From an uncultured Lachnospiraceae bacterium (GTDB lineage: Bacteria > Bacillota > Clostridia > Lachnospirales > Lachnospiraceae), in contig CANQUA010000008.1 in NCBI GenBank assembly GCA_947626915.1, positions 135 through 64,134 on the forward strand: a DNA stretch of 64,000 nucleotides. Reading direction: 5' to 3'. Position 1 is the first letter of the stretch. Each line of letters starts with the position of its first letter. The notes beneath the pieces are model-generated. The model worked only from the letters and a program-made list of their open reading frames with translations. It was not told the origin of the DNA and ran no database searches. The translations under genes and the position numbers were made by a program. Of the stretch, positions 1 to 37,644 are shown piece after piece.

Positions 1-1
1 G

Positions 2-274
2 CGGCTCGATATGGACGAACGCACGGTGGTTTATGATGACGAGGAAATCCCCCTGACGGCGCGGGAGTTTAATATCATCTACAAGCTGCTGTCCTATCCG
101 GGCAAGACCTTCACCCGCACCCAGCTCATGGACGAGTTTTGGGACGCGGAAACGAACACTGCGCCGCGTGCCGTGGACGTTTATATGACGAAGCTGCGGG
201 GGAAGTTTGAGAAATGTACGGAATTTGAACTCAGGACCGTTCACGGTTTGGGCTACAAGGCGGTGATACTGTGA
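2..274 (+). CDS. OmpR-family response regulator, C-terminal winged helix (5' end outside window)
   Basis: LTAREFNIIYKL...TRTQLMDEFW...AVDVYMTKLR...RTVHGLGYK; frame is open to the window edge. Confidence 0.9.
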   Translation, partial: RLDMDERTVVYDDEEIPLTAREFNIIYKLLSYPGKTFTRTQLMDEFWDAETNTAPRAVDVYMTKLRGKFEKCTEFELRTVHGLGYKAVIL

Positions 275-1371
275 GGCCGGATTCAAGGTTAAGGCGGCTT
301 CTGTTCTCTCTGAGAAGTTATGCTGCCTTTTTTCTGCTGATGTCTTTCGTGATCACCTGCTGTATGCTGCTGTTTCTGAACGCGCTGGCGGGCTCCATGG
401 AAATCGCCTATACTGAGCGCGGGATTCGTCTGGCCGCTGTCACAACATTCGTCAACGTAATCTTTCTGAGTCTGCTGTGTACCGCAATCGACGGCGTGCG
501 CCGGAAATATATGGTGGAACGCCCAGTGCGGCGGATCGTGCAGGGGGCAGAAAAACTCATGCAGGGCGACTTTTCCACACGAATCGAGCCCTATCATGGG
601 ATTGATGAACGATCCGGCTTTGACACGATCATCGACTATTTCAACCGCATGGCGGAAGAGCTTTCCGGCGTGGAGACCTTGCGGACGGATTTCATCGCCA
701 ATGTGTCCCACGAATTAAAAACGCCGCTGGCCGTCATGCAGAATTACGGAACCATGCTCCAAAGTCCCGATCTGACCGAAGCGCAGCGGATGGACTACGC
801 CAGGGCGATCACTGAGCAGTCCCGCCGTTTGGCTGACCTTATTACGAATATCTTGAAACTGAACCGTCTGGAAAACCAGCAGATTTATCCCGCCGCAAAG
901 CGGTACGATCTTGGCGGGCAGCTTGCCGAGTGCCTTCTGAACTTTGAAAGCACCTGGGAGAAAAAGAACATCGGCATTGAGACGGCTCTCGAAGAAGAAG
1001 TATTTGTGAAATCGGACGGCGAGCTTTTGTCCCTCGTCTGGAACAATCTGTTCTCCAACGCCCTGAAATTTACGGAAAGCGGCGGCACGGTGTCCGTGGC
1101 TTTGAAAACGGAGGGAGATTATGCCGCCGTCCGGGTGTCAGACACCGGCTGCGGTATTTCTCCGGAAATCGGCAAGCACATCTTTGAGAAGTTTTATCAG
1201 GGCGATACCTCTCATGCCACACAGGGCAACGGCTTGGGGCTGGCGCTGGTGAAACGGGTGGTGGATATTGTCGGCGGTACCATTTCCGTAGAGAGTGAGG
1301 TCGGAAAAGGCAGTACCTTTACTGTAAGAATCAGGAGGGCGGCGGATGGAGACATTCAAAAGAATCCTTAA
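271..1371 (+). CDS. Sensor histidine kinase (2 TM, HAMP, HisKA, HATPase)
   Basis: ANVSHELKTPL H-box, NLFSNALKF, DTGCGI and GNGLGL boxes; start overlaps regulator stop. Confidence 0.93.
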   Translation: MRPDSRLRRLLFSLRSYAAFFLLMSFVITCCMLLFLNALAGSMEIAYTERGIRLAAVTTFVNVIFLSLLCTAIDGVRRKYMVERPVRRIVQGAEKLMQGDFSTRIEPYHGIDERSGFDTIIDYFNRMAEELSGVETLRTDFIANVSHELKTPLAVMQNYGTMLQSPDLTEAQRMDYARAITEQSRRLADLITNILKLNRLENQQIYPAAKRYDLGGQLAECLLNFESTWEKKNIGIETALEEEVFVKSDGELLSLVWNNLFSNALKFTESGGTVSVALKTEGDYAAVRVSDTGCGISPEIGKHIFEKFYQGDTSHATQGNGLGLALVKRVVDIVGGTISVESEVGKGSTFTVRIRRAADGDIQKNP

Positions 1372-2260
1372 AAAGATATTCTGCCTGCCTCCTCTCCCAA
1401 CGGTTCTGGCAGCGCTTTTCGGCTACGGCTTTGTGATCGCCGTGTTTGCGTTTGATATACAGAACCCAATCCTGCAGTACGCCTCCTACATTGCTTCTGC
1501 CTATGCACTGATCGTCAGCATTACAGGGCTTGTCTATATCAATACGGCGATAGGCGGCGTCAGAAAATTTATCTCCGATCATCCGCTGATGAAAAAATTC
1601 CGCTCCACCAAGATGGGTGAAAAATACATGACCGATGTGCGTTTCCGGGCAGGAGTCTCGCTGTATCAGGGCTTTTTCATCAATCTCCTGTATATCGCCA
1701 TGAAGCTGGTATCCGGCATCGTGTACCGCTCCGCATGGTTTGCCGCGCTGGCGGTCTATTACCTTCTGCTGGCCGTGATGCGCTTTCTTTTAGTACGGCA
1801 GCTGAACATGCAGGACAAAGCGGCGGAACTCAGACGCTACCGGCTGTGCGGGATCCTGCTTTTGTTTATGAACCAGGCGCTCGCGGGAATTGTAATATTC
1901 ATGGTCCACCAGAACCGCGGATTTGAGTATCCGGGGCTGCTGATCTACGCCATGGCCGCCTATTCCTTTTATGCCGTCACCATTGCCATCATCAACATCA
2001 TCAAGACCCGGCGGCACAAAAGCCCGATTCTCTCAGCAGCCAAAGCCATCAGCTTTGTGGCGGCGCTGGTGTCCGTTCTGTCCCTGACCACTGCCATGCT
2101 CTCCCAGTTCGGCGGAGAGGACAACGCGGAATTCAACAGGACCATGACCGGCGCTGTAGGCGGCGGGGTCTGCATCATTGTGATCGGCATGGCAATCTAT
2201 ATGATCGGACGGGCAAATAAAAATCTGAAAAAAATTGAAATTAACAATTCTCGAACATAA
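1346..2260 (+). CDS. Multi-pass membrane protein of unknown function
   Basis: 304 aa, many hydrophobic segments; AGGAGG RBS upstream. Confidence 0.75.
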   Translation: METFKRILKKIFCLPPLPTVLAALFGYGFVIAVFAFDIQNPILQYASYIASAYALIVSITGLVYINTAIGGVRKFISDHPLMKKFRSTKMGEKYMTDVRFRAGVSLYQGFFINLLYIAMKLVSGIVYRSAWFAALAVYYLLLAVMRFLLVRQLNMQDKAAELRRYRLCGILLLFMNQALAGIVIFMVHQNRGFEYPGLLIYAMAAYSFYAVTIAIINIIKTRRHKSPILSAAKAISFVAALVSVLSLTTAMLSQFGGEDNAEFNRTMTGAVGGGVCIIVIGMAIYMIGRANKNLKKIEINNSRT

Positions 2261-2325
2261 CTTGAATATTTTGCAAACGGTTACCTGATACAATAACCGC
2301 GGGATCCTGAAAGGAGCAGAAGATC

Positions 2326-2709
2326 ATGGAAGAAAAGAAAGAGACTTTCACCTATACCTATTCCGCAAAAGAGCAAGAAGAAATCAAAAAGATCCGGGAC
2401 AAATACGCACCCCCGGCAAAAGAGGAAACCCCGATGGAGCAGCTTCGCCGACTTGACGAGAGCGCCACAAAGGGAGCAGCCATCGTCTCTCTGATCGTCG
2501 GGATCATCAGCGCTCTGATTTTGGGGGTTGGGATGTGCTGCACGATGCTGCCCGGCTGGGAGCGGTATTTCGTTCCGGGCATTGTAATCGGCGTGTCCGG
2601 CATCATCGGCATCATCGCGGCCTATCCGATCTACACACACATGGTAAAGCGTAAGAGGGAAAAACTTGCGCCGGAAATCATGCGGCTATCGGATGAGCTG
2701 ATGAAGTGA
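2326..2709 (+). CDS. Small 2-TM membrane protein
   Basis: AAGGAG RBS; charged N-terminus followed by two hydrophobic helices. Confidence 0.75.
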   Translation: MEEKKETFTYTYSAKEQEEIKKIRDKYAPPAKEETPMEQLRRLDESATKGAAIVSLIVGIISALILGVGMCCTMLPGWERYFVPGIVIGVSGIIGIIAAYPIYTHMVKRKREKLAPEIMRLSDELMK

Positions 2710-2720
2710 TTTTGTCAGTC

Positions 2721-2754
2721 AGACCGCTTACTGAAAACGTAGGCGGTCTTTTTC
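2721..2754 (+). terminator. Intrinsic terminator
   Basis: AGACCGCTTAC...GTAGGCGGTCT stem followed by a T-run. Confidence 0.75.
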
Positions 2755-2803
2755 TGTCATATTTATTGAAAACGCATTGATGAGGATACCGTAAAACTTT
2801 CTT

Positions 2804-3288
2804 ATGCCGCCCCACCCTTGGGACGGTCTGCTTTTTCACGGACAAAAAGCGGCTGTTCACGGACATTTCCGCAGGGCGCCCGTTCTTTTGCTATCCTGTT
2901 GTCGTGAGGATGCGCAAAGCGGCACATTGACAGCAGCAGAAAGGCAGTATCGTACTTCTATCTGTCTGCGCGGTATGCAGGGTTCGATAGCCCTTTTGGG
3001 ATAGCGAATAAAACGATCCTGCCGTCCATCGGCGCGGCGCCTTGGGTTATTATTTTTCTGTTTTGCAAAACATGTATCTGGAAACAAATCATGAATGGAG
3101 GGTATCTGATGCGTCATTTTTATTTTCGTCTCATTCTTGGGATCGTCTGGCTGGCCGCGGCGCTGTTTTGTATCACGGGCGCCGATCTCCCCTTTGCGGC
3201 GCTGTACGCCGCGTTGGGCATTCTGTTCCTGTGATCCGCCTGTTTAGTCCGGAAAAAGGTGGGAAGCAGCAAAGATGATCGGGAGTAA
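2804..3288 (+). pseudogene. Decayed membrane-protein genes (frameshift near 3001; in-frame TGA at 3232-3234 in MRHFYFRLILGIVW...)
   Basis: Hydrophobic reading continues across a -1 shift at 3001; ORF from ATG 3109 (GGAGGG RBS) is interrupted by TGA and reads on to TAA 3288. Confidence 0.45.
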
Positions 3289-3589
3289 CGAAAGGAACCG
3301 AACGGAACTTCTGAAAAAGGCTTATCTGATCATGGCGTTCGCCCTGAAACCGAAACTGCTCCTGCTGGACGAGCCTGTGAACGGACTGGATTTTCAAAGC
3401 ACCGAATATCTGTATGAGCAGATCCATCACTACCGACAATGCGGCGCCGCCCTCTTCTCGTCCCACATCCCGGAAAGCATCTGTCTTACATCTGACCGGG
3501 TGCTGGTACTGGAGCAGGGGCAGATCCGGAGAAGGTTTGCGGGACAGGAAATCGAAGCCGCCAGGATCCGGGAGGTGCTGAAAGAATGA
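3275..3589 (+). pseudogene. ABC ATPase C-terminal remnant
   Basis: LLLLDEPVNGLD Walker B/D-loop and FSSH H-loop present; no Walker A or signature motif. Confidence 0.8.
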
Positions 3590-4492
3590 ACATCCTGAAA
3601 GCCCTCTTAAAACAGCTTCTGGGCGCCAGGTATGAGCGCGCCGGAAAGAGCCTGATGGTTTATCCTGTATGTTTCCATCCACGCTGCGGGAATTGAAACC
3701 GAGATTGCTGCTTCGGTTCTCTTTCTGACGGCGGCGGCCGTTTCGGCGGGGATCCTGTGGCAGGCCTTTCATTCTCCGGGGAACGCAGACAGCATGACCG
3801 GGCTGTTTCTGCTGCCGTTTGCGGGCAGAAACATGACGTTTTCCATCGTCCTGGCCTTTACCGGCTACACGCTGGTCACAAAAACGTTTCCTGTATTGAC
3901 GCTGTTCTTTGCGGTCCATGAATGGAGCGCGGCGCAGATCGCCGTGTCACTGCTCTGCGCCTGTCATGGCTGTTTCCTGACCGCCGCCGCTCTGCCGTTT
4001 CTGTTGGGGCAGTTCGACGGGCTCCCCGTCCTGCCGCTGGGATTCGCCATCCTGTGCCTGAATACGCCGGTCTGCATATTGCTGTCCTGCGACCCGGCGC
4101 TGGAGCAGGCGGTCCGGATGCTGCCCGGACAGGCCCTCCGCTTTTGTCCCCGCTATTGCGTCTTCCTTTCTTTCGTCAACGCGGCGGTGAGCGGCGTGTA
4201 TCTGGCGAGCTGGCAATGGCGGTACGGCGGCGTGGACGGTCCGGAAATCGCCGCCGCGCTGCTGATCGCTCTGCAGAGCGCGATCCTGTCTGTCCTGCTG
4301 GAATGGTTTTGCCCGATCCGCAGCTGGAAGATCGAAAGCGATCTGTGGCAACACCCGCGCAAATACGTTGTGCCCGTCGTCATGCTGCTCCTCGCAGGGC
4401 TGATCGGTATCTGGCCCGTAAGCCTATGGATCCTGTTCTGCGCCGTTTTAGCAGAAATTTTAATCTTACCAAAAATCGCAAGGAGGATTTGA
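3586..4492 (+). pseudogene. ABC-type permease, frameshifted near 3660
   Basis: ATG 3586 overlaps the ATPase stop; MNILKALLKQLLGARYERAGKSL shifts frame into ILYVSIHAAG... and joins the 3794-4492 ORF. Confidence 0.65.
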
Positions 4493-4496
4493 ACCC

Positions 4497-4718
4497 ATGA
4501 AAAATACGAAACGCTGCCCAAAGTGCAATTCGCAGAATATTGTCCGCGTCCCCGACAACCAGAACCGCCACGCAAGCGGCAACAACATTTATACCTCAAC
4601 TTTTACGCTGATGAAAAAAATCCCCGTAATACGCTATGTCTGCTGCGACTGCGGCTATGTGGAGAACTGGGTCGAAACCCAGAGCGGACGCATGGAGATC
4701 AAACGCACTTTCGGCTAA
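4497..4718 (+). CDS. Small zinc-ribbon protein
   Basis: CPKC and CCDCGY motifs; AGGAGG RBS. Confidence 0.75.
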   Translation: MKNTKRCPKCNSQNIVRVPDNQNRHASGNNIYTSTFTLMKKIPVIRYVCCDCGYVENWVETQSGRMEIKRTFG

Positions 4719-4763
4719 AATCCCGGCAAAACCGGTTTTCATTCAAAAACCCCCTTCGCGCTG

Positions 4764-4793
4764 TCATAGCGGACCTGCCGCCGCTCATATAGT
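4764..4793 (+). promoter_or_regulatory. sigmaE-like (mother-cell) promoter ahead of the small ORF and LSR1
   Basis: TCATAGC-15 bp-CATATAGT; ATA to CATA spacing 17 bp. Confidence 0.55.
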
Positions 4794-4825
4794 ATACAGC
4801 CATTCTTTGAAAGGAGGCTGCACAT

Positions 4826-4984
4826 TTGAAAAGCAGCGAAAAGCCGGCGGCCGCAGGCGTATGCAAAAGTGTTTTCAAAAGCGGCGAAAACACGATTTCA
4901 GGAGAACAATTCACCCAAATGTGGATCCAGCTGATCAATCAGATTGAAAAGGACAGAGCTCTCCATGCTGCCCGGAAAGAATGA
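4826..4984 (+). CDS. 52-aa small protein not in the ORF track; candidate recombination directionality factor for LSR1
   Basis: AAGGAGG RBS then TTG; MKSSEKPAAAGVCKSVFKSGENTISGEQFTQMWIQLINQIEKDRALHAARKE*; function inferred from position. Confidence 0.6.
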   Translation: MKSSEKPAAAGVCKSVFKSGENTISGEQFTQMWIQLINQIEKDRALHAARKE

Positions 4985-5028
4985 CAAGCCTTTCTCCGCA
5001 GGCCCCTGCCTGCGCGGAAAAGGCTTGT
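4984..5028 (+). other. Stem-loop between the small ORF and LSR1
   Basis: ACAAGCCTTT...GCAGG / CCTGC...AAAGGCTTGT imperfect inverted repeat. Confidence 0.55.
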
Positions 5029-5051
5029 TCCGTCTCTGAGGAGGGCCAAAC

Positions 5052-6605
5052 ATGAAAGCCGCCATTTATTGCCGCTTATCCGAAGAAGACCGAAACAAGC
5101 AGTCCGAAACCGACGACAGCTGCAGCATACAAAATCAGAAGGCCATGCTGCTGCAATACACGATGGAACAGGGGTGGGAACTTTACAACATTTACAGCGA
5201 CGACGACTACACCGGCTCCGACCGGCGGCGTCCGGAGTTTAACCGCCTGCTGCGGGACGCAGAGCAGCGCAAATTTGATATTGTCCTCTGCAAGACCCAG
5301 TCGCGCTTTACCCGCGAATTGGAATTGGTGGAAAAATACATCCATGGGCTGTTCCCAATATGGGGGATCCGCTTCGTCAGCATTGTCGACAACGCGGATA
5401 CCGCAAATAAGGGAAACAAAAAGTCCCGTCAGATCAACGGGCTCGTCAACGAATGGTACCTGGAGGATATGTCTGAGAATATCCGAAGCGTCCTAACAAA
5501 CCGGCGGAAGAACGGTTTTCACATCGGCGCATTCGCCCTTTACGGTTACAGGAAAGACCCCGAACAAAAGGGACACCTGATCGTCGACGAGGAAGCCGCG
5601 GCCGTCGTCCGCGAGGTATTTGCCCTTTTCGCCCAGGGTTACGGAAAAACCGCGATCGCCCGTATGCTCAACGACCGGGGCATACCCAATCCCACGGAAT
5701 ATAAACGCCTGCACGGGCTGCGCTACCGGCAGCCGAAGATGAAAAACAGCACCCTATGGAACTATTCCGCCATTTCGGATATGCTGACCAACGAAATCTA
5801 CATCGGCAATCTGGTCCAGGGCAAATACGGCAGCGTGTCCTACAAAACAAAGCAAAACAAGCCGCGCCCGAGAAGCGAATGGTACATCGTCGAGGGGACG
5901 CACGAGCCGGTCATTGACCGGGAACTGTGGGACAGGGTACAGGCACTGGCCGCCCAGAAAGCCAGGCCTTTTGCCGGCGGCGCCATCGGATTATTCGCCG
6001 GAAAAGCCCGCTGCGCAAACTGCGGTTATGTCATGCGCTCTTCCAAAACCCACAATAAACATTACCTGCAGTGCCCCAGCCGCCATCTGTCGAAAGACGC
6101 CTGCACCGGCTCTTTCATCTCTGTGGAAAAACTGGAACGGCTCGTCCTGGACGAGCTGAACCGTCTGGCAGCGGAGTATCTGGACCAGGACGCGCTCGAA
6201 CAGAACATCCGGCTCTGCGACAATCTGCAGGACCGGAAAGCCCGCCTGCTCTCCGATCTGGCGGCCTATCAGAAAAAGATCGCGGAGTATTCCAAAGGCA
6301 TACGGGAGCTTTACATGGATAAGGTCAGGGGGATCCTGTCCGAAAGCGATTATGCAGCGCTGTCAAAGGATCTTGCCGCGGAACGCAGCCGCCTGGAACG
6401 CGTCGCCGCCGACGCAGAAACGCGGCTGTCCGAACTCGAAGCCGGCATTGCGGCGGGCGGCCATCGCCGCGAGCGAATCGAATCCTATACCCGCCTGGAG
6501 CATCTCACCCGGGAGATCGTGGAAACGCTGATCGGTCACATATCGGTCGGCAGGCGTATCCCCGGCACCAGGGACGTCCCGATCGAGATCCACTGGAACT
6601 TTTGA
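5052..6605 (+). CDS. Large serine recombinase LSR1 (resolvase, recombinase, zinc ribbon, coiled coil; SpoIVCA/CisA-like)
   Basis: YCRLS catalytic motif, DDDYTG, KTQSRFTR, THEPVI, CANCG...C zinc ribbon; uninterrupted 517 aa. Confidence 0.95.
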   Translation: MKAAIYCRLSEEDRNKQSETDDSCSIQNQKAMLLQYTMEQGWELYNIYSDDDYTGSDRRRPEFNRLLRDAEQRKFDIVLCKTQSRFTRELELVEKYIHGLFPIWGIRFVSIVDNADTANKGNKKSRQINGLVNEWYLEDMSENIRSVLTNRRKNGFHIGAFALYGYRKDPEQKGHLIVDEEAAAVVREVFALFAQGYGKTAIARMLNDRGIPNPTEYKRLHGLRYRQPKMKNSTLWNYSAISDMLTNEIYIGNLVQGKYGSVSYKTKQNKPRPRSEWYIVEGTHEPVIDRELWDRVQALAAQKARPFAGGAIGLFAGKARCANCGYVMRSSKTHNKHYLQCPSRHLSKDACTGSFISVEKLERLVLDELNRLAAEYLDQDALEQNIRLCDNLQDRKARLLSDLAAYQKKIAEYSKGIRELYMDKVRGILSESDYAALSKDLAAERSRLERVAADAETRLSELEAGIAAGGHRRERIESYTRLEHLTREIVETLIGHISVGRRIPGTRDVPIEIHWNF

Positions 6606-6636
6606 CCGCAGATCGTTCTTACAGGATCGCCCCATC

Positions 6637-6858
6637 TGCCGCCAGGTCCTCAAACAGATCGGTGATCGGATCACCCTTGGACTGAAACTCGCAGGCGCTG
6701 AAGGGCACGCCGCCCGCCGCCTGGGGCCAGATCCCGGCCGTATGGTCGATATAATAGGGACCCAGACCGGAGGCGGCGATCTGCTCCGCGCTCAGGCCTT
6801 TGGTCAGCTGATGGATGATCGATGCAATGATCTCCATGTGAGCCAGTTCTTCCGTACC
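6637..6858 (-). pseudogene. cotJC: cotJC piece B (middle 74 codons of the manganese-catalase-family spore coat protein)
   Basis: GTEELAHMEIIASIIHQLTKG...YYIDHTAGIWPQAAGGVPFSACEFQSKGDPITDLFEDLAA. Confidence 0.92.
6849..6858. repeat. att core, left junction of the LSR2 element
   Basis: CTTCCGTACC, identical to 12777-12786; followed by arm GAAGCACCGAAAATGCTCCT. Confidence 0.9.
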
Positions 6859-7002
6859 CACAGAAGCACCGAAAATGCTCCTCGGCTCTGCCGGGCAAAG
6901 CGGGACCAGACGTGTGATCTCCTACTAAAATCCCAAGAAAAATCCCTGTTCTTTTACCGGAATGTCCGTTATACTATAAGTAACTTCTGAGGAGGACCGT
7001 TT

Positions 7003-7665
7003 ATGTACCGAAAGATACTGATCATCGACGACGATATCTATATTGGGAACCTGATGGACGATGCTTTGAGCAGGGAGGGCTATCAGATCTTCCACGCGTA
7101 TTCCGGCACGGAGGCGCTGCTGTTTTTGGCGCAGGCCAGGCCGGACCTGATCCTGCTCGACCTGATGCTGCCGGGACTTTCCGGAGAAGAGCTGCTGCCG
7201 CAGATCAAGGGGATCCCCGTCATTGTCGTAAGCGCGAAAGTGGACGTGGACGACAAAGTCAACCTGCTGCTCGGCGGCGCGGCGGACTACATCACCAAAC
7301 CATTTCAGGTCAAAGAGCTTCTGGCCAGGGTCGCCGTGCAGTTCCGCAGGCTCGATCCGGCCTCTCCCGCCCCGGTCCTGGAGTACGGCGGCCTCCGGCT
7401 CGATCCCGTTACCCATATCGTAACCGCCGGCCAAAAGGAACTGAAACCTACCAGAACGGAATACGCGATCCTGAAAATACTCATGCAGAACCCCTCGCAG
7501 ATCGCAACCAAATCGCTGCTTTTAGACCGCATAAGCGCAGATACGCCGGACTGCACAGAAAACTCTCTTAAAATGCACATCAGCAATCTCCGGAAAAAGC
7601 TGCGTGAAGCGGACGGCCAGGATCACATCGAAGCGGTCTGGGGGATCGGGTTCCGGCTGCGCTGA
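7003..7665 (+). CDS. OmpR-family response regulator
   Basis: ILIIDDD, DLILLDLMLP, DYITKPF, AVWGIGFR; GAGGAGG RBS. Confidence 0.95.
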   Translation: MYRKILIIDDDIYIGNLMDDALSREGYQIFHAYSGTEALLFLAQARPDLILLDLMLPGLSGEELLPQIKGIPVIVVSAKVDVDDKVNLLLGGAADYITKPFQVKELLARVAVQFRRLDPASPAPVLEYGGLRLDPVTHIVTAGQKELKPTRTEYAILKILMQNPSQIATKSLLLDRISADTPDCTENSLKMHISNLRKKLREADGQDHIEAVWGIGFRLR

Positions 7666-7671
7666 AAAAAT

Positions 7672-7714
7672 CTTTACGGTTTCTTTACCGGTTCCTTTAC
7701 CGCTTTCTTTACGG
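7672..7714 (+). promoter_or_regulatory. Four CTTTAC(G/C)G direct repeats, probable response-regulator binding site
   Basis: Copies at 7672, 7683, 7695 and 7707, ahead of the ABC ATPase gene. Confidence 0.6.
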
Positions 7715-7758
7715 TTCCATGATACGATACCGGCATCAAATCAAGGAGGTATGCCTTT

Positions 7759-8673
7759 ATGGACTATGTTCTCAGAACAAACGCTTTGACCAAAAGCTAT
7801 AAAGGGGCCAAAGCGCTGGCCGGTCTCACGATGAATGTGCCCAAGGGAGCGATCTACGGGTTCGTGGGGAAAAACGGCGCCGGCAAGACGACGCTGATCC
7901 GCCTGATCTGCGGCCTGCAGGAGCCGGATTCGGGAGACTACACGCTGTACGGCAGAAAAAACGCGGAAAAGGACATTACAAGCTCCCGCCGCCGGATGGG
8001 CGCGGTCGTGGAAACGCCCGCCATTTATCTGGATCTGACGGCGGAGGAAAATCTCAGGCAGCAGTACCGGATCCTGGGACTGCCCTCGTTTGACGGGCTT
8101 TCCGACATTTTAAAACTGGTGGGGCTGGATCAAACCGGGAAAAAGAAAGCGAAAAACTTTTCCCTGGGGATGCGGCAGCGGCTCGGGATCGCCGTCGCTC
8201 TCGCCGGGGATCCGGACTTTCTGGTTCTGGACGAACCCGCCAACGGACTCGACCCCCAGGGGATCATCGAGATCCGGGAACTGATCCTGGAGCTGAACCG
8301 CAGGCAGCAGATCACAGTCCTGATCTCCAGCCATATCCTGGACGAACTGTCAAAGTTCGCGACCCATTACGGTTTCATCGATGGCGGGCGCATGGTAAAA
8401 GAAATCAGCGCCGAAGAACTGGAGGCCGCCTGCCGGAAATGCGTCCGCATGGAGGTCAGCAGCACGAAAGCCCTCGCCCGCGTCCTCGACAAAATGAAGA
8501 TCGACTATACGATCCTGAGCGGCACGACCGCCGACGTCTACGCGAAAGTAAACATCTCCCGCCTGAGCAGCGCGCTTGCAGGGGAGAACTGCGAACTGAT
8601 CTCGGCGCAGGAACGGGATGAAAGTCTGGAAAGCTATTATGTGAGTCTGGTGGGAGGCGGAACGAATGAATAA
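7759..8673 (+). CDS. ABC transporter ATPase (BcrA/lantibiotic-immunity-like)
   Basis: GKNGAGKT, FSLGMRQR, LVLDEPANGLD, ISSH. Confidence 0.93.
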   Translation: MDYVLRTNALTKSYKGAKALAGLTMNVPKGAIYGFVGKNGAGKTTLIRLICGLQEPDSGDYTLYGRKNAEKDITSSRRRMGAVVETPAIYLDLTAEENLRQQYRILGLPSFDGLSDILKLVGLDQTGKKKAKNFSLGMRQRLGIAVALAGDPDFLVLDEPANGLDPQGIIEIRELILELNRRQQITVLISSHILDELSKFATHYGFIDGGRMVKEISAEELEAACRKCVRMEVSSTKALARVLDKMKIDYTILSGTTADVYAKVNISRLSSALAGENCELISAQERDESLESYYVSLVGGGTNE

Positions 8674-9496
8674 ACTGCTGCGGTCAAATTTTTCAAGGCT
8701 CTGGAGAGACAAACTGTTCTGGCTCTGCATGGGAGCCATGCTCATCTATGCGGTCCTGTTCATGTTAAACGGATGCAGGCAGGCGGCCGCGGATATGTCG
8801 GAATATTCGTATTCTATCGATAACTATTATTTCCATTTCGCGTTATCGATCGGACTCTTCTGCTCGGTGTGCAGCAGTATGTTTTTCGGGACGGAATACA
8901 GCGACGGAACGATCCGGAATAAGATCATCGTCGGACACACAAGGACCGACATCTATCTGGCGAGCCTGATCACCACCTTTGCGGCGACGCTGCTGATCAT
9001 GTCGGTGTGGCTCGTCGGAGCGCTCGTCGCCGTCCCTGCGCTTGGCTTCTGGAAAATAGGCGCTTTGCGGCTGCTGAGCTTCCTGCTGATCGCCGTTATG
9101 TTCGTCCTCGCGCTTTCCGCGATCTGTACGGTGATCAATTTGCTGTCGTCCGGCAAGGCCGATGCGTTTCTCATCTCGATCCTGCTGTTCATTGGCCTGC
9201 TGCTTTTGGCAAGCATGATCTACAACGGCCTCAGCGAGCCGGAAATGGTAAGCGGCGTTCAGATCACCCAGAATGGGCTCGATCTAACGGAACCTGCCCC
9301 GAATCCGAACTATGTCACCGGGATGAAGCGGGAGATCTATGATTTCATCGTCGATTTCCTGCCGACGGGACAGGGACTGCGGATGTGGCAGCTGGAGATC
9401 GCGCATCCGGTCCGGATGATCCTCTCCTCGCTGTTTATCACGGCCGTCACGACGGCGGGCGGGATGTTGGCGTTTAAGAGGAAGAATATCCAGTGA
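8666..9496 (+). CDS. ABC-2 type permease
   Basis: Six hydrophobic segments, EYSDGTIRNKIIVG motif; overlaps the ATPase gene. Confidence 0.88.
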   Translation: MNKLLRSNFSRLWRDKLFWLCMGAMLIYAVLFMLNGCRQAAADMSEYSYSIDNYYFHFALSIGLFCSVCSSMFFGTEYSDGTIRNKIIVGHTRTDIYLASLITTFAATLLIMSVWLVGALVAVPALGFWKIGALRLLSFLLIAVMFVLALSAICTVINLLSSGKADAFLISILLFIGLLLLASMIYNGLSEPEMVSGVQITQNGLDLTEPAPNPNYVTGMKREIYDFIVDFLPTGQGLRMWQLEIAHPVRMILSSLFITAVTTAGGMLAFKRKNIQ

Positions 9497-9705
9497 CAGG
9501 AATTCAGTCCGGGGGATGGTTTTCGTTATTCGGCGGATTCTTATTATCGAACAAATGATACTCGTTGCCTGATGGTTTTCGCCGCTTGATGGACGATTCC
9601 ATCATCGGATGGATTTTTGCTGCCTGATAGACGATGCCCGTCACCTGATGGATTTTCGTTACCTGACGCGTAATTCTCATCGTACGATCATAAGGGGGAT
9701 TATTT

Positions 9706-10599
9706 ATGGAAATGTGGTTATGGGCACTGAGCGGTATCATGGCAGCCGCCATTCTTTTACTGCTTCTCAAAATACATGCCCTGCAAACGGCCGCAAAGGA
9801 AATCGAGAGCGCCTTTGCCGACAGGCTCATGACTGATACCAACACGCTGATCGATCTCTCTTCCGCGGACCGGCACATGCGCCGCCTGGCAAACGGCATC
9901 AACGTCCAGCTGAGAAAGCTGCGGGAGGAACGGCGCCGTTTCGAGCAGGGAGATCTGGAACTCAAAAACGCGGTCACAAACATTTCCCACGATCTGCGTA
10001 CCCCTTTGACGGCCATCTGCGGCTACCTGGATCTGCTGGAAGAGGAGGAAACGTCCGAAAAAGCGGCCTATTATCTGCAGATCATCCGGGACCGGGCAGA
10101 GCTTTTAACGCAGCTGACGGAAGAATTGTTCCGATATTCGGTCATCCTTTCCGCCGAAAGCAGCGGGAACTGGGAGCCTGTGAATGTGGGCGGTGTGCTG
10201 GAAGAAAGCATCGCGTCGTTCTACACGGCGCTAAAAGAGCGGGACATTTCGCCAACGATCCGGATCCCGGAAAAGAAAATCGTCCGGACGCTGGACCGCT
10301 CCGCTCTGGCCCGCGTATTCTCCAATCTGCTGAACAACGCAATCAAGTACAGCGACGGCGATCTGGAGATCATCCTATCGGAAACAGGCGCGGTGATCTT
10401 CACGAACACGGCGTCCGGATTAAACGAAGTACAGGTAGGAAGACTGTTCGACCGCTTTTATACGGTCGAAGCCGCCAGGAAATCGACGGGCCTGGGCCTG
10501 GCGATCGCCAGAACGCTGATCGAGCAGATGAACGGGACCATATCCGCCGAATACCAAAATAACCGGCTGAACATTACCATCGCGCTGCCGGACGAGTAA
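9706..10599 (+). CDS. Sensor histidine kinase
   Basis: NISHDLRTPL, NLLNNAIKY, STGLGL. Confidence 0.93.
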   Translation: MEMWLWALSGIMAAAILLLLLKIHALQTAAKEIESAFADRLMTDTNTLIDLSSADRHMRRLANGINVQLRKLREERRRFEQGDLELKNAVTNISHDLRTPLTAICGYLDLLEEEETSEKAAYYLQIIRDRAELLTQLTEELFRYSVILSAESSGNWEPVNVGGVLEESIASFYTALKERDISPTIRIPEKKIVRTLDRSALARVFSNLLNNAIKYSDGDLEIILSETGAVIFTNTASGLNEVQVGRLFDRFYTVEAARKSTGLGLAIARTLIEQMNGTISAEYQNNRLNITIALPDE

Positions 10600-10601
10600 G
10601 G

Positions 10602-10644
10602 GACAACGCCTGCGGGAGTTTGGCAGCTCCTCGCGGGCGTTGTC
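10602..10644 (+). terminator. Stem-loop downstream of the kinase
   Basis: GACAACGCC...GGCGTTGTC stem; weak T tail. Confidence 0.5.
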
Positions 10645-10707
10645 TTATGGGGGCGGACGCCGCGTCTACCTGCGCCCCGTATCGGCCCACCAAAAACGTT
10701 TTCCTCG

Positions 10708-10737
10708 TTATATGGGACAAACACCGGCTCATATATT
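10708..10737 (+). promoter_or_regulatory. sigmaE/sigmaK-like promoter ahead of the small ORF and LSR2
   Basis: TTATATG...CATATATT; ATA to CATA spacing 17 bp. Confidence 0.45.
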
Positions 10738-10812
10738 AGAATACGCCGTCGATCTGCTGTACGGTTCTACACAGCAGATACCGGCTGACTCTTTTGGAAA
10801 ACGAGGGAAACA

Positions 10813-11049
10813 TTGGCTGTGAAAACCAGGGAATTCGTTTATACGGGCGGCCCCGTTCCCGATCTGGACGGACCGGAATACGCGGCGTTCCTTTTGAATC
10901 TGCAAAAAGGGATCCTCCTTTCTCTGGAGCAGAGGAACCTATTGACCGCTTCGCAGCGGGAGCGCTGTCTGGCCATGCTCAAGGATCCGTGCATACAAAA
11001 GGCCAAAGCCACGTCCGCTGGGCCCGCCGGGAAAGGGGGTTCCGCATGA
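10813..11049 (+). CDS. 78-aa helical protein; candidate directionality factor for LSR2
   Basis: GAGGG RBS; stop overlaps the LSR2 ATG (ATGA at 11046-11049); function inferred from position. Confidence 0.65.
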   Translation: MAVKTREFVYTGGPVPDLDGPEYAAFLLNLQKGILLSLEQRNLLTASQRERCLAMLKDPCIQKAKATSAGPAGKGGSA

Positions 11050-12758
11050 ACCGGTATGAGCGCCTGAACCAGAAACAAAAGGCTGTGACCACGAAGAAAA
11101 AAGTTGCGGCGTACTGCCGGGTCTCCACCGACGGCGAGGATCAGGCCAACTCGTTTGAAAGCCAAAAACGGTATTTCCGGCAGTATATCGAGCGCAATCC
11201 CGACTGGGAGCTTTACGAAATATTTGCCGACGAGGGTATCTCCGGCACAAACACCCGGAAGCGAAACGCATTTAACCGCATGATCGCCTGCGCCAAAAAC
11301 GGCGATTTCGATCTGATCATCACCAAAGAGATCTCCCGCTTCGCCAGAAACACACTGGACAGTATCTACTATACCCGGGACCTGAAAAAACATGGAATCG
11401 GCGTGATCTTTCTGAACGACAACATCCATACACTGGACAGCGACGCGGAGCTGCGCCTCGCCATCCTGTCTTCCATCGCGCAGGAGGAAAGCCGAAAGAC
11501 CTCGGAGCGTGTGAAATGGGGACAGAAACGCCGGATGGAACAGGGCGTCGTGTTCGGCAGGGACCTGCTCGGCTACGACGTCCGCGGCGGCAAATTGTAT
11601 ATCAATGAAGAGGGGGCAAAGATCGTCCGCCTTATCTTTCATAAATTTGTGGACGAGAGAAAAGGTACCCACGTCATCGCCCGGGAGCTTCGGGAGGAGG
11701 GGATCCCGCCCTGCCGCGGAAAGGAATGGCAGCATACCGTCATTCTCCGCATACTCCGCAACGAAAAATACTGCGGCGACCTGGTACAGAAAAAGACCTA
11801 TACGCCGGACTTTTTGTCCCACGAAAAGAAATACAACCGCGGACAGGAGGAATTTGTCATCCTGAAAGACCACCATGAGCCGATCGTTTCCCGCGAGCTG
11901 TTCGACGAGGCCAACCGGATCCTGGACGAGCGCTCCCGCACGGCTGCGGGAAAAGCAAGGTACTGCCATCCGGCCGCGCCAAATACAGAGGACGAACGTT
12001 CCTGCACAGTTGCAGGAAAGATCAGGTACTCCAGCCGCCACACGTTCTCCGGGAAGATCCGGTGCGGACAATGCGGCCACAGCTATGTGGCACGATATAA
12101 GACCCGCAGGGACGGGAGCCGGTACAGGGCGTGGCGCTGTCTGGAAGCCGTCCGAAACGGCCCTCCTCGTTCGGATTCGGCAGGCAGTCCGGCCGGCTGC
12201 GCATCTCCCGGTATCCGCAATGAGGATGCCGTCCATCTCATGTGCCTCGTCACAAAGGCGCTGAGATTCGACCGCTCAAAGTTCCAGGACCGTCTGCTCT
12301 CTGTGATCCGAACCGCAATCGCCACGGATGCCGGGGGCGCGGATACCGAAAAGCGAAAGGCGCGGATCCAGGCCATAGAAAACAAACGGGCCCGGCTGAT
12401 CGAACTCTATCTGGCCGGCGATGTGACAAAAGAGGAATTTACAGCCGCCAGCGCAAAATGCGACAGCGAGATCGCCGGGCTGCAGCCGGACACAGCAAAG
12501 ATGGAGCGGCAGCCGGCGCAGCCCCCGCGGAAGCAGCAGGAGCTGATCCGCGCGATGGACGGCGCGGTCTCTGAGCTTTTAAACGGTGTGGAATACGAGG
12601 ATACGTTTTACCGGCAGATCCTGGATCAGATGGTGGTGATAGACCGCGACCATATAGACGTGTATCTGCATTTTCTTCCGGTCAAATGGAGCTACACGGC
12701 CGCGGGATGCGGAAATGCTCCGCGCCGGAGACCCGCTCAACCGAAAAAGAGCCCCTGA
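11046..12758 (+). CDS. Large serine recombinase LSR2 (570 aa; start reassigned from 10794)
   Basis: AAYCRVST, FADEGISG, KEISRFAR, HHEPIVS, CGQCG zinc ribbon, coiled coil; GGGGG RBS before ATG 11046. Confidence 0.94.
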   Translation: MNRYERLNQKQKAVTTKKKVAAYCRVSTDGEDQANSFESQKRYFRQYIERNPDWELYEIFADEGISGTNTRKRNAFNRMIACAKNGDFDLIITKEISRFARNTLDSIYYTRDLKKHGIGVIFLNDNIHTLDSDAELRLAILSSIAQEESRKTSERVKWGQKRRMEQGVVFGRDLLGYDVRGGKLYINEEGAKIVRLIFHKFVDERKGTHVIARELREEGIPPCRGKEWQHTVILRILRNEKYCGDLVQKKTYTPDFLSHEKKYNRGQEEFVILKDHHEPIVSRELFDEANRILDERSRTAAGKARYCHPAAPNTEDERSCTVAGKIRYSSRHTFSGKIRCGQCGHSYVARYKTRRDGSRYRAWRCLEAVRNGPPRSDSAGSPAGCASPGIRNEDAVHLMCLVTKALRFDRSKFQDRLLSVIRTAIATDAGGADTEKRKARIQAIENKRARLIELYLAGDVTKEEFTAASAKCDSEIAGLQPDTAKMERQPAQPPRKQQELIRAMDGAVSELLNGVEYEDTFYRQILDQMVVIDRDHIDVYLHFLPVKWSYTAAGCGNAPRRRPAQPKKSP

Positions 12759-12776
12759 CAAGGAGCATTTCAGGGG

Positions 12777-12786
12777 CTTCCGTACC
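12777..12786. repeat. att core, right junction of the LSR2 element
   Basis: CTTCCGTACC preceded by arm AGGAGCATTTCAGGGGCTTC. Confidence 0.9.
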
Positions 12787-12969
12787 TACATCGGTCAGTA
12801 CCGCCTTTCCGATGTCATAGGGCATCGCGTAACGCTGGGACAGATAGCGCATGGAAGCCGCGCTTTCCCCGTCCGGACCGCCGTACTGGCTGGCAATAAA
12901 CTGGGCCAGCTGCGGATTGGGGTTCGTAATCTTTACCGGGTACTGCAGGCGTTTTTCATATCTCCACAT
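12778..12969 (-). pseudogene. cotJC: cotJC piece A (codons 1-64); reads into att sequence and stops at 12682
   Basis: MWRYEKRLQYPVKI...QYGGPDGESAASMRYLSQRY...LTDVGTE; directly follows cotJB. Confidence 0.93.
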
Positions 12970-12972
12970 ATA

Positions 12973-13230
12973 CTAACGTCCTCCTTCCCAGGGCCAGGGA
13001 CCCTGCGCCCACATCCAATAGCCGCCGGCCGGGCTGACGCTCTCGGCGGTCAGCGGGCCGTAACCGGACTGATACGCGTTCATCGCGTCGCCGCGCATCC
13101 GCACGACCGACTGATAATAGGCCAGCGCCATCTGGTCGCAGGGATGCGTATCCAGAAACAGCGCGGCATCGTCCATGGCGAAACTGGTCTGATCGATGAC
13201 ATTTAAAAGCTGCTTCTCATTCTCAGACAT
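12973..13230 (-). CDS. cotJB: Spore coat protein CotJB
   Basis: LLNVIDQTSFAMDDAALFLDTHP...YGPLT...WMWAQGPWPWE. Confidence 0.93.
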   Translation of the reverse strand: MSENEKQLLNVIDQTSFAMDDAALFLDTHPCDQMALAYYQSVVRMRGDAMNAYQSGYGPLTAESVSPAGGYWMWAQGPWPWEGGR

Positions 13231-13432
13231 GGGCGCACCTCCCTATGACAAACGGATAATCCAGCTCCGGGAAAATGGTTCCCTGTCTCAGGCCCTGCTC
13301 CAGGGTATACGTCTGACGCCACTGCTGCCACGGGACATACCCCATGCCCACGGGAAACTGTTCGATACAGCCGGCTCCGCTATTGGGACAGTTCATGGCC
13401 GCAGGCGACTGGTTCCTGCAAGAACAACTCAT
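13223..13432 (-). CDS. cotJA: Spore coat associated protein CotJA
   Basis: GMGYVPWQQW...LRQGTIFPELDYPF; overlaps cotJB start. Confidence 0.92.
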   Translation of the reverse strand: MSCSCRNQSPAAMNCPNSGAGCIEQFPVGMGYVPWQQWRQTYTLEQGLRQGTIFPELDYPFVIGRCAHV

Positions 13433-35564: not shown

Positions 35565-36596
35565 ATGAAAAACAAGATCACGATTCAGGACATTGCCGAT
35601 TCCCTGCATCTGTCCAGGGCGACCGTGTCCAAGGTATTAAACAATTCCTCCGGCGTCGCGGACGATACGAGGCAGATCGTACTGTCCAAAATGCAGGAGC
35701 TGAATTATAAAAATCCAGGCCGCGCCCTCAAAAGCAGAGCCCGATCGGAACAGCGTCTGCGGCATAACTTTGCATTCCTGATGCACATGATGCCGGGTGA
35801 TCTTCATGTGGGTTCCACGATTCTGACGCAGCTGGAGCAGGAGATCCGGAAAAAAGGCTATTCCCTGACCATCCACACCATCACCGACGACGATTACCAC
35901 CGCAGGGTGCTGCCGCCCAACCTTTACATCGATCAGACCGTGGCGTTCGTATGTCTCGAACTGTTCGACAGCGGCTACACCCAGCTTCTGTGCTCCCAGG
36001 ATGTCCCGGTTCTTTTGGTGGACGCCTGCTCCGATTTTCATGAATTAGGCCTCCGGTGCGATCTTCTGATGATGGAAAACCGCTCAAGCGTTTATCGGAT
36101 GCTTTCCGCTTTGTGCAAAAGGCATCCGATCAAAACCATGGGATTTTTCGGCGACATACGCCATTGTCTCAGTTTCAGGGAACGTTACGAAGGATTTCAG
36201 CTGGCGGCGCAGGATCTGGGTCTTGAAACCGAACGGTTTCAGATCATAGACCACGATTCCCTTTTCTGGAACCCGGAATGGATCCTGCAGCGGATTCAGA
36301 AGCTGGAAACGCTTCCCGACCTTTTCTTCTGCGCCAACGATGTGCTGGCCCAGAATCTGATCCTGCGGCTTTCGGATCTGGGATACCGCGTCCCCGAAGA
36401 CGTTCTGGTCTGCGGGTTTGACGGCATCCCGACCAACGAGCCTATTATCTCCGGCCTGACGACCGTCTGCACGCCCAGCACCGAACTCGGCGTCACGGCC
36501 GCCCAGATCCTGATGAACAAAATACAGAATCCCAGGGGCTCTTCCACCAGCACCTATCTGCACACAGATATCCTTTTCCGCCATACGGCGCCTTAG
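35565..36596 (+). CDS. LacI-family regulator
   Basis: ITIQDIADSLHLSRATVSKVLN, FCANDVLA, VCGFDG. Confidence 0.93.
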   Translation: MKNKITIQDIADSLHLSRATVSKVLNNSSGVADDTRQIVLSKMQELNYKNPGRALKSRARSEQRLRHNFAFLMHMMPGDLHVGSTILTQLEQEIRKKGYSLTIHTITDDDYHRRVLPPNLYIDQTVAFVCLELFDSGYTQLLCSQDVPVLLVDACSDFHELGLRCDLLMMENRSSVYRMLSALCKRHPIKTMGFFGDIRHCLSFRERYEGFQLAAQDLGLETERFQIIDHDSLFWNPEWILQRIQKLETLPDLFFCANDVLAQNLILRLSDLGYRVPEDVLVCGFDGIPTNEPIISGLTTVCTPSTELGVTAAQILMNKIQNPRGSSTSTYLHTDILFRHTAP

Positions 36597-37633
36597 CTCT
36601 GTATCAGCGAGGTCTTCCGGTAAATGATCCTGGAATCAACGTAAATCACATTGCGCGCCCTTCCGGGGCTGGCCATGCGCTGCATAAGGCAGCCGATCAC
36701 ATTCTGGACCAGCTCCTCCCGGTCGCTCCCCACCGTCGTAAGCGGCGGATCGACCACAGCCCCTTCTCTCAGATTATCAAACGACACGATCTGCACCTGC
36801 CGCGGTACCTGAACGCCCCGCTCCTTTAAAACCGCGAGCAGGGCAAGCGCAATCTTATCGCTGGCGGCGACAAAAGCGTCCGGAAGCTCCCGCAAACTGT
36901 CCAGAAATTCCCGCAGCCTTTCCTCCGGGTTCCCCCGGTCCAGTTCCGCATCCTCCAGACAGCAGGCATTCTCCGGCGAAAGCCCGTATTCCCGCATCGC
37001 GCTGCCGTATCCCCTGTACCGCTCATAATTTCCTCTGCAGAGACGGGCGTTGCCGACAAAGCCGATTCGTTTGCAGCCGTTCTCCAGAAGACCGGCAGTC
37101 AAACGGTGGGCCGGATACTCATTATTCATCAGCACCACGTCGTACCTGCCCGGAACGTCCCACAGATCGCGGCAAAATTCCAGGAACACGGTAGGGATCC
37201 CGCACCGGAGAAGCTTTTCGATGTAAGCCCTGTGATACAGTTCGATACAGACGATTCCATCCACCTTGTCCTCCTCCACCATCTGAGGAAGCTGCTGCCG
37301 TTCCATTTCCTCCTGCAAAACTCCGTAAAATACCAGGACATAGCCTCTGGATTCCACGTTCTGCTGAATCTCATTCACCAGCGGAAGAAAGAAATTGGAC
37401 TGGTCCATTTCGCCGTTGCACAGCAAAAGAAGGGTTTTGACGCCGTCCCGTTCCTCGGCCTCCTCCACCTGTCCCAGCCCTTTATAGTTATTCTCCCGCA
37501 AAACCGTAATGACCCGGTTCCGAATCTGGGCGGAACCGGTATAACGCCCGTTCACAATCTTGGACACCGTATTTCTGGATACCCCCACCATGTCCGCGAT
37601 TTCCTGCAGAGTGATCTTCTCCCTCACTGCCAT
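36593..37633 (-). CDS. LacI-family regulator
   Basis: ITLQEIADMVGVSRNTVSKIVN, IVSFDN, PPLTTV. Confidence 0.93.
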   Translation of the reverse strand: MAVREKITLQEIADMVGVSRNTVSKIVNGRYTGSAQIRNRVITVLRENNYKGLGQVEEAEERDGVKTLLLLCNGEMDQSNFFLPLVNEIQQNVESRGYVLVFYGVLQEEMERQQLPQMVEEDKVDGIVCIELYHRAYIEKLLRCGIPTVFLEFCRDLWDVPGRYDVVLMNNEYPAHRLTAGLLENGCKRIGFVGNARLCRGNYERYRGYGSAMREYGLSPENACCLEDAELDRGNPEERLREFLDSLRELPDAFVAASDKIALALLAVLKERGVQVPRQVQIVSFDNLREGAVVDPPLTTVGSDREELVQNVIGCLMQRMASPGRARNVIYVDSRIIYRKTSLIQS

Positions 37634-37644
37634 ACTGCTCCTTC

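Follow-up and report, generated by a model that had tools for sequence, protein, structure and literature searches.

The spore-coat gene cotJC of an uncultured gut Lachnospiraceae bacterium (assembly GCA_947626915.1) is, close to certainly, cut into three co-oriented pieces by two unrelated serine-recombinase elements, and every junction of this double interruption is defined to the base. Two of the pieces are located in the 64,000-nucleotide stretch of contig CANQUA010000008.1 analysed here (the window, to which coordinates refer unless a contig is named), and the third is on another contig, C29. The window's own contig is referred to as C8, and position 1 of the window lies 134 nt inside its left end. 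The element that separates the second piece from the third, element 1, is, as far as sequence can tell, close to certainly one element of about 10 kb with defined attachment (att) sites, and the three-piece gene rejoins exactly. We regard it as probable that this is a single element, some 10.1 kb long, which entered cotJC at the GA of codon Glu136 (AA-E-QKAR) and would be excised by its own large serine recombinase (LSR), LSR1, at a time set by sporulation, with cotJC being rebuilt after two excisions.

The gene belongs to a cotJ operon on the minus strand, the identity of which comes from Pfam: cotJA (13223-13432; CotJA, E=2e-17) and cotJB (12973-13230; CotJB, E=1e-28) lie upstream of an interrupted cotJC coding frame, all three in one operon. 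Expression of cotJC in the mother cell is known from the Bacillus subtilis literature. Piece A contains codons 1-64 (12777-12969, minus strand) and matches positions 1-65 of the Mn_catalase profile; piece B contains codons about 62-136 (6635-6858, minus strand, within the open reading frame (ORF) 6861..6619) and matches profile positions 60-150. The 3′ end of piece B reads ...GAC CTG GCG GCA GA|T GGG GCG ATC CTG TAA and lies beside LSR1, an arrangement that the initial annotation had read correctly, together with the LSR1 stop codon at 6605. That annotation had also found no EQKAR-like segment at 1-5050, and had predicted that the missing C-terminus would be encoded on the minus strand at the far end of an element larger than 6.6 kb. 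A tblastn search with the CotJC C-terminus over the whole window returned no matches at E<=0.01, the best being a 23-aa chance match (E=0.043), and the Mn_catalase profile matches only pieces A and B on C8.

The whole assembly, a metagenome-assembled genome (MAG) of 107 contigs and 3.18 Mb with an estimated contamination of 1.2%, was then searched with the same profile, and gave four matches: an intact paralogue on contig C11, pieces A and B, and a single orphan on C29 (35739-35891, minus strand, profile positions 147-197). With tblastn this orphan extends to C29 35640-35888, and it is the sole free cotJC C-terminus in the assembly. We refer to it as piece C, the C-terminal 81 codons of the gene. 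It starts GCAGCAGAGCAGAAGG, its protein reads (RV)AAEQKARTTYDNILRVVTDPEVCDPLRFLREREIVHFQRFGEALRD...CQ*, and its DNA opens GCA GCA GA|G CAG AAG (AAEQKAR...; written GCAGAGCAG), in agreement with the start near GCAGA(G/A)CAG that had been anticipated. The third piece had been expected to the left of the window; it exists, but it is on C29, C8 stopping 134 nt upstream of the window.

Several observations show that the three pieces fit one another. First, when A, B and C are joined in silico, the product is a CotJC of 216 aa whose alignment with intact same-genus orthologues is gap-free, with 89-93% identity to the closest of them. Second, the sequences GTEELAH and AAEQKAR, which span the two joints, are invariant between the joined protein and the orthologues. 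Third, the DNA of intact orthologues is colinear with C8 12911-13639, C8 6769-6995 and C29 35689-35888 (contig coordinates). Fourth, the pieces have diverged to a similar degree: at the DNA level, the closest intact orthologues share 82-84% identity with piece B and 85-89% with piece C (for piece C, 78-89% over all nine compared). Finally, the split pieces contain neither stops nor frameshifts, and are 82-94% identical to intact orthologues.

The ends of element 1 are equally well marked. The recombinase-proximal arm, P′, at 6600-6634 recurs in inverted form at C29 35883-35917, where 24 of 35 positions agree without a register shift, much as had been predicted for 6606-6633. Next to it is a core that is shared by the two junctions, although of the segment 6634-6645 proposed to hold it only the 5-nt sequence TCTGC is common to both (6635-6639 and C29 35881-35885). 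Within this core, the dinucleotide TC at 6635-6636 corresponds on the gene strand to the GA of the Glu136 codon, and it is flanked by the inverted motifs GTTCTTAC/GTCAGAAC (GTTCTTA/TAAGAAC), which are 12 nt away on each side both here and in relatives; the GTTCTTA-N12 arm motif is conserved across the LSR1 family. Because TC/GA lies exactly midway between the inverted arm motifs, we infer that it is the crossover. The LSR1 stop codon is 29 nt from this position. The att sites are thus short, imperfect inverted repeats around a central 2 nt that are duplicated at both junctions, and the GA target dinucleotide matches that of Tn4451/Tn5397-type recombinases. Joining attL to attR at this position in silico restores the intact conserved frame of 216 aa.

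Element 1 runs off both the window and the contig, since C8 extends just 134 nt further left, and its length therefore depends on how C29 and C8 are ordered. The ends of the two contigs do not overlap each other, and no overlap was found between the tail of C29 or the head of C8 and any other contig end in the assembly. The C29 tail ends with a ribosome-binding site without a gene, and C8 begins inside an OmpR-type response regulator. Homologues of both ends are present in G054, a Lachnospiraceae genome of another genus that was used for synteny, in which they are adjacent and co-oriented (plus/plus); DNA identity is 78.5% for the C29-tail gene and 79.7% for the first 2.4 kb of C8. The regulator is full length in G054, and the 89 N-terminal residues that are missing here occupy the whole room between the two homologues. 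The order is therefore C29(+) followed by C8(+) with a gap of about 270 nt, an order in which pieces A, B and C share one strand, as the initial annotation had supposed, and the two-component and membrane genes at 1-4718 fall inside the element. Element 1 then consists of a left part of about 3.07 kb (C29 35883-38955), an unsequenced gap of about 0.27 kb between C29 and C8, and a right part of about 6.77 kb (C8 1-6768, which is window 1-6634 plus 134 nt), or about 10.1 kb in total. Window positions 1-6634 represent its right-hand two thirds, and its left end abuts piece C on C29.

A binning or assembly artefact, in which piece C comes from another strain or organism and the three pieces were never one gene, has to be considered for a MAG in this many contigs with some estimated contamination, particularly as the pieces are on two contigs whose ends do not overlap. 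An attempt to anchor C29 by the genes that follow cotJC failed, since their order is not conserved past the stop codon in same-genus genomes with an intact gene. We nonetheless consider such an artefact very improbable. The bin contains exactly one orphan C-terminus and exactly one orphan A and B; core and arms match between C29 and C8; piece C resembles the same-genus orthologues as closely as pieces A and B do; the G+C content is 54% in both element 1 parts and 57% in both flanks; and an independent genome, G054, has the genes of both contig ends adjacent and co-oriented.

The second interruption separates pieces A and B. Element 2 (6859-12776, plus strand) is 5.9 kb long, is bounded by a 10-nt direct repeat, CTTCCGTACC, at 6849-6858 and 12777-12786, and encodes its own large serine recombinase, LSR2 (about 11046-12758), recognised by its domains, that shares just 29% identity with LSR1. 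The same double split is present in Agathobaculum ammoniilyticum Sanger_34 (L075), in which the LSR2 homologue is 44% identical.

LSR1 is an intact 517-aa ORF (5052-6605, plus strand) with the Pfam domains Resolvase (1e-21), Recombinase (3e-28) and Zn_ribbon_recom (1e-12) plus DUF4368, all above cut-off, and its N-terminal resolvase domain followed by recombinase and zinc-ribbon domains identifies it as a large serine recombinase of the phiC31/Bxb1/TndX type. It scores 94 bits against the XisF equivalog model, below the cut-off of 375. Searching contigs from one genome per species revealed more than 567 confirmed relatives, and the best 80, from which the locus statistics are taken, share 77-87% identity and come from Lachnospiraceae, Oscillospiraceae, Anaerotignaceae, Butyricicoccaceae and other families. 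Cultured strains that carry the family include Anaerotignum lactatifermentans DSM 14214, A. ammoniilyticum Sanger_34, Flintibacter muris DSM 110149, Parablautia intestinalis D8-82 and Anaerotruncus colihominis JM4-15. Complete elements in the related loci are 4-7 kb long. At 77 of these 80 loci the recombinase stop codon is followed directly by part of cotJC, broken at residues 133-136, and the LSR1 lineage is, judging from where its members are inserted, dedicated to this cotJC codon. Beyond the recombinase arm of three loci (L021, L017 and L026) cotJC is absent, and these may be secondary sites or circle junctions. At a further locus, in an uncultured Oscillibacter MAG (L093), the N- and C-terminal parts of cotJC flank the recombinase on opposite strands (4693-5100 and 7805-7999); simple insertion cannot give this layout, so that it may be an inversion or a mis-assembly. 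There is also an Oscillospiraceae sub-lineage (L061, L062, L067, L070, L073, L074, L076, L079, L081, L082, L084, L087, L092 and L093) with an extra small ORF (MQPKEEFE.SIQSIDQALGEIERTLEQ...) between the recombinase stop codon and the att arm, which is absent from the element in the window.

The family is inserted in two polarities. In the first (67 loci), the recombinase end is beside the C-terminal part of cotJC, and the junction reads ...GATTGCAGCA|GA|ACAGAAAGC. In the second (10 loci and the window), it is beside the N-terminal part, which is on the other strand, and the junction reads ...GATTGCACCA|TC|TGCTGCC. The distance from arm motif to dinucleotide is equal in both, and on the gene strand the attP core is alike (GCAGCA-GA-TGGGGCGAT); it is the orientation of the core with respect to the recombinase gene that differs. 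In serine integrases such as those of Bxb1 and phiC31, the central dinucleotide alone sets polarity, and the two polarities fit this rule because the core is the same and its orientation relative to the recombinase gene is reversed. A palindromic crossover dinucleotide was considered as an explanation for both polarities and rejected, since one class has GA and the other TC at the same spacing. On a maximum-likelihood tree of the recombinases, well-supported branches carry at least 5-6 changes of polarity, and a switch is seen even between near-identical enzymes (L020 and L024).

The region upstream of LSR1 has a conserved layout. First, there is a candidate promoter of the mother-cell type (sigmaE/sigmaK-like), ATA-N17-CATATAGT, at 4766-4793 on the plus strand (CATATAGT at 4786-4793). 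The B. subtilis consensus is ATA-16/18-CATACA-T for sigmaE and AC-16/18-CATA---TA for sigmaK. Of the 75 related loci for which it was counted, 51 have a motif of the form ATA-N16-18-CATAnnnT in a fixed place some 280 nt before the recombinase start, with an expected background of 0.034 per 330 nt; by eye, at least three sequence-divergent versions of the upstream region keep it. Second, directly upstream of LSR1 there is a conserved 52-aa ORF, orf52 (4826-4984, plus strand), which tblastn also finds upstream of the recombinase at 74 of the 80 related loci and which matches no Pfam or NCBIfam family. Third, a hairpin lies between orf52 and LSR1 (4983-5029, plus strand; -34.9 kcal/mol, z = -3.9) and has counterparts at 65 of the 71 related loci included in that count; its stem sequences, compared by eye, vary between loci yet stay complementary. 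In most relatives this hairpin contains a sequence resembling a sigmaA promoter, TGACA-N17-TATAAT/TATACT, often with TG; the copy in the window has kept the hairpin and lost the -10 box. The ribosome-binding site of the recombinase is overlapped by another small palindrome, ATCTCT-AAGG-AGAT.

The promoter motif and the 52-aa ORF, read as a candidate regulatory unit, point to excision that is timed to sporulation, and from the conserved motifs and the analogy with known elements we think this fairly likely, and the most likely mode. The mechanism that we propose would proceed as follows. The sigmaE/K-type promoter would drive orf52, the candidate directionality factor, and LSR1 by read-through, and would restrict excision to the sporulating mother cell. 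LSR1, at the right end of the element and by its sequence a member of a lineage dedicated to the cotJC site, would then recombine attL with attR at the central GA/TC, releasing a circle and rejoining GCG GCA GA|G CAG AAG in frame, and element 2 would be removed independently by its own recombinase. Full-length cotJC would form only after two excisions, in the terminally differentiated mother cell, and the genome of the spore would retain both elements. A more elaborate version, which we mention as a doubtful possibility, is a two-key lock in which two modules of recombinase and small ORF, those of LSR1 and LSR2, are orthogonal and are both needed in the mother cell; LSR1, having lost the vegetative sigmaA -10 box, would depend on read-through from the sporulation promoter only and may be becoming purely developmental, and polarity in the family would have been reversed repeatedly by flipping of the attP core relative to the recombinase gene.

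A quite different explanation is that element 1 is an ordinary integrative element for which cotJC is just a conserved and dispensable landing site, so that this copy is permanently inactivated, excision serves transfer, and the coat function comes from a second cotJ operon. Such an operon is indeed present: contig C11 contains a complete and intact cotJA-cotJB-cotJC (G000:C11:32315-32959) that is 64% identical to the split copy and has its AAEQKAR site free. Promoter arrangement may also be read in this way, as most relatives have a sigmaA-like promoter directly before the recombinase gene, and LSRs of the TndX type, which use a central GA, serve as integrases of transposons (PMC4430133). Moreover, identical LSR proteins are present in Anaerotignum lactatifermentans DSM 14214 (L018), a Ruminococcaceae MAG and a Candidatus Hungatella MAG (L018, L019, L021), and transfer between families must therefore have been very recent. 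Three features do not fit permanent inactivation. A mother-cell-type motif and a small ORF are kept at a fixed position across divergent lineages; an abandoned gene should decay, and the split pieces have kept an open frame and their similarity to intact genes; and no mobilisation (relaxase), conjugation or phage genes were found among the ORFs of the sequenced 9.8 kb, with the gap of about 270 nt being too small to hide such a mobilisation gene. We therefore consider permanent inactivation unlikely, while noting that developmental excision and integrative transfer are not exclusive, and that the family clearly also transfers horizontally. In the locus extracted around the C11 operon (L001 919-2112), the AAEQKAR site closely resembles that of the split copy in its DNA and is nonetheless free, and the match table suggests that the C11-type paralogue is intact in same-genus relatives.

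Several points weigh against excision timed to sporulation, or against the single element on which it depends. As the C11 operon is intact, reconstitution of the split copy may not be under selection, and the identical recombinases in three families show that the LSR1 family is also an actively transferring element and not a developmental switch only. Assignment of the promoter to sigmaE/K is a consensus match, and the consensus is that of B. subtilis; a role for the 52-aa ORF as recombination directionality factor (RDF) is a guess, made for an ORF with no family match. The join of C29 to C8 was drawn from synteny in another genus and not read directly. The exact species-specific junctions, of the empty site (attB, 39 nt) and of the circle (attP, 32 nt), were not found in a collection of metagenome contigs that may not cover the habitat of this host. 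Finally, the cargo of element 1 looks partly decayed, with an ABC ATPase present as a fragment only.

Besides orf52 and LSR1, the sequenced 9.8 kb of the element encode two two-component systems, a number of membrane proteins, the ABC fragment and a zinc-ribbon protein. The C29 part (35883-38955) carries a LytTR response regulator, a GHKL kinase and small membrane proteins. On C8, where all genes of the element are on the plus strand, the C-terminal part of the OmpR-type response regulator (1-274; Trans_reg_C, E=3e-19), the gene for which starts in the gap, is followed by a sensor histidine kinase with Pfam domains HAMP-HisKA-HATPase_c (271-1371) that is colinear with G054:C31 at about 80% DNA identity, and then by two membrane proteins (1346-2709) of 304 aa (1346-2260) and 127 aa (2326-2709), which are ORFs likewise colinear with G054 and match no Pfam or NCBIfam family above cut-off. 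Further right come an ABC-type ATPase of which a C-terminal fragment is left (3275-3589), a membrane protein of 232 aa (3794-4492) and a zinc-ribbon protein of 73 aa (4497-4718). The open frame of the ATPase is limited to its last 104 residues, and within 2710-3589 the stretch upstream of it has no long ORF, which suggests that the cargo is partly decayed; the recombinase module has stayed intact. A cargo module made up of a small membrane protein, the OmpR regulator, the kinase and membrane proteins recurs in G054:C31 (L183 9176-12753) at about 80% DNA identity, and neither cotJC nor an LSR1 relative was found in the 14.6 kb fetched around it. The cargo module therefore moves independently of the recombinase module. 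An exact-protein look-up found no identical protein on record elsewhere for either the histidine kinase or LSR1.

Interruption of cotJC is not restricted to this genome. A survey of the host genome and 40 relatives found cotJC intact in about 8 of the 41; elsewhere the breaks are near residues 27-33, 59-65, 133-137 or 166-180, and some genomes have the gene in three pieces. The gene behaves as a multi-site landing pad with different recombinase types (G002, G005, G013, G014, G019, G028 and G035; L035, L075 and L089): the recombinase at the residue-170 site of G005 is 23% identical to LSR1, and one insert, in G002, appears to be about 40 kb long. In G008, a genome of the same genus, the cotJC C-terminus seems to be present twice with an overlap; this arrangement was discarded, since it results from a scaffold join across a run of N.

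That cotJC can be interrupted is already known, and the double interruption itself recurs in other genomes; the present locus is an unusually clear double case of a known type of sporulation-gene switch. Skin-type elements with an LSR and a small sporulation-induced RDF have been described in several species (PMC5025042, PMC5595907, PMC4191935), and 10.1101/2021.11.22.469490, citing Abe 2013, includes cotJC among interrupted sporulation genes. The literature searched, to the extent that its text was accessible and with Abe 2013 represented through that citation only, gave no account of the LSR1 lineage, the GA crossover, the two polarities, or double or triple splits of cotJC.

The closest comparison is with skinCd, the sigK element of Clostridioides difficile, which encodes the LSR CD1231 and the small RDF CD1234 and in which the recombinase is constitutive and a small sporulation-induced factor triggers excision (PMC5025042). 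Both are elements of Clostridia that carry one LSR at the end and interrupt a mother-cell sporulation gene, and the skinCd model, in which a small accessory protein under the control of a sporulation sigma factor gives directionality, has its parallel here in the succession of promoter motif, small ORF and LSR. They differ in that the target here is cotJC, a spore-coat manganese-catalase homologue, and not a sigma factor, that element 1 has signalling and transport cargo without phage remnants and an RDF that is only a candidate, and that the gene holds two independent elements at once. The gin element in gerE of Bacillus cereus ATCC 10987 is 28.6 kb long and has GirC, GirX and three recombinase genes (PMC5595907). 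It too is a non-phage element that combines a serine recombinase with a very small partner ORF and has short att sites with direct and inverted repeats; element 1, at about 10 kb, has one recombinase, a different target gene and a host of a different bacterial class, and the LSR1 family is spread over hundreds of gut Clostridia species. In B. subtilis, the prophage SPbeta is inserted in spsM and is excised by SprA with SprB, an RDF under mother-cell control (PMC4191935, PMC5499854). Its precise LSR-mediated excision during sporulation rebuilds a spore-envelope gene, and by analogy the same is proposed here for cotJC, although SPbeta is a 134-kb active phage and element 1 has no phage genes.

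Outside sporulation, TndX of Tn5397 is an LSR that acts as sole integration and excision enzyme and has an obligatory central GA in its target (PMC4430133). Element 1 shares the large serine recombinase and the central GA, and differs from Tn5397 in that no conjugation or mobilisation genes were seen, in its single specific cotJC codon, and in the sporulation-type motif upstream of the recombinase. Developmental excision is also familiar from the heterocysts of Anabaena, a terminal cell type in which the nifD, fdxN and hupL elements are removed by XisA, XisF and XisC, and several elements can interrupt genes of one pathway. Those elements belong to another phylum and another differentiation programme, and LSR1 is sub-threshold to the XisF model.

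The value of this locus lies in its clean double interruption, in the polarity flips and in the conserved regulatory layout. The LSR1 lineage offers hundreds of natural attP/attB pairs for one conserved target of 40-50 bp, and the presence of both polarities among near-identical enzymes provides material for examining how integrases read their sites and how the dinucleotide sets orientation. In genome annotation, cotJC 'pseudogenes' in gut MAGs should not be taken for gene loss. If excision is indeed timed to sporulation, these elements would represent a form of developmental genome rearrangement in gut Clostridia that is widespread and has hardly been described, and would show how mobile DNA can travel in spores at small cost to its host.

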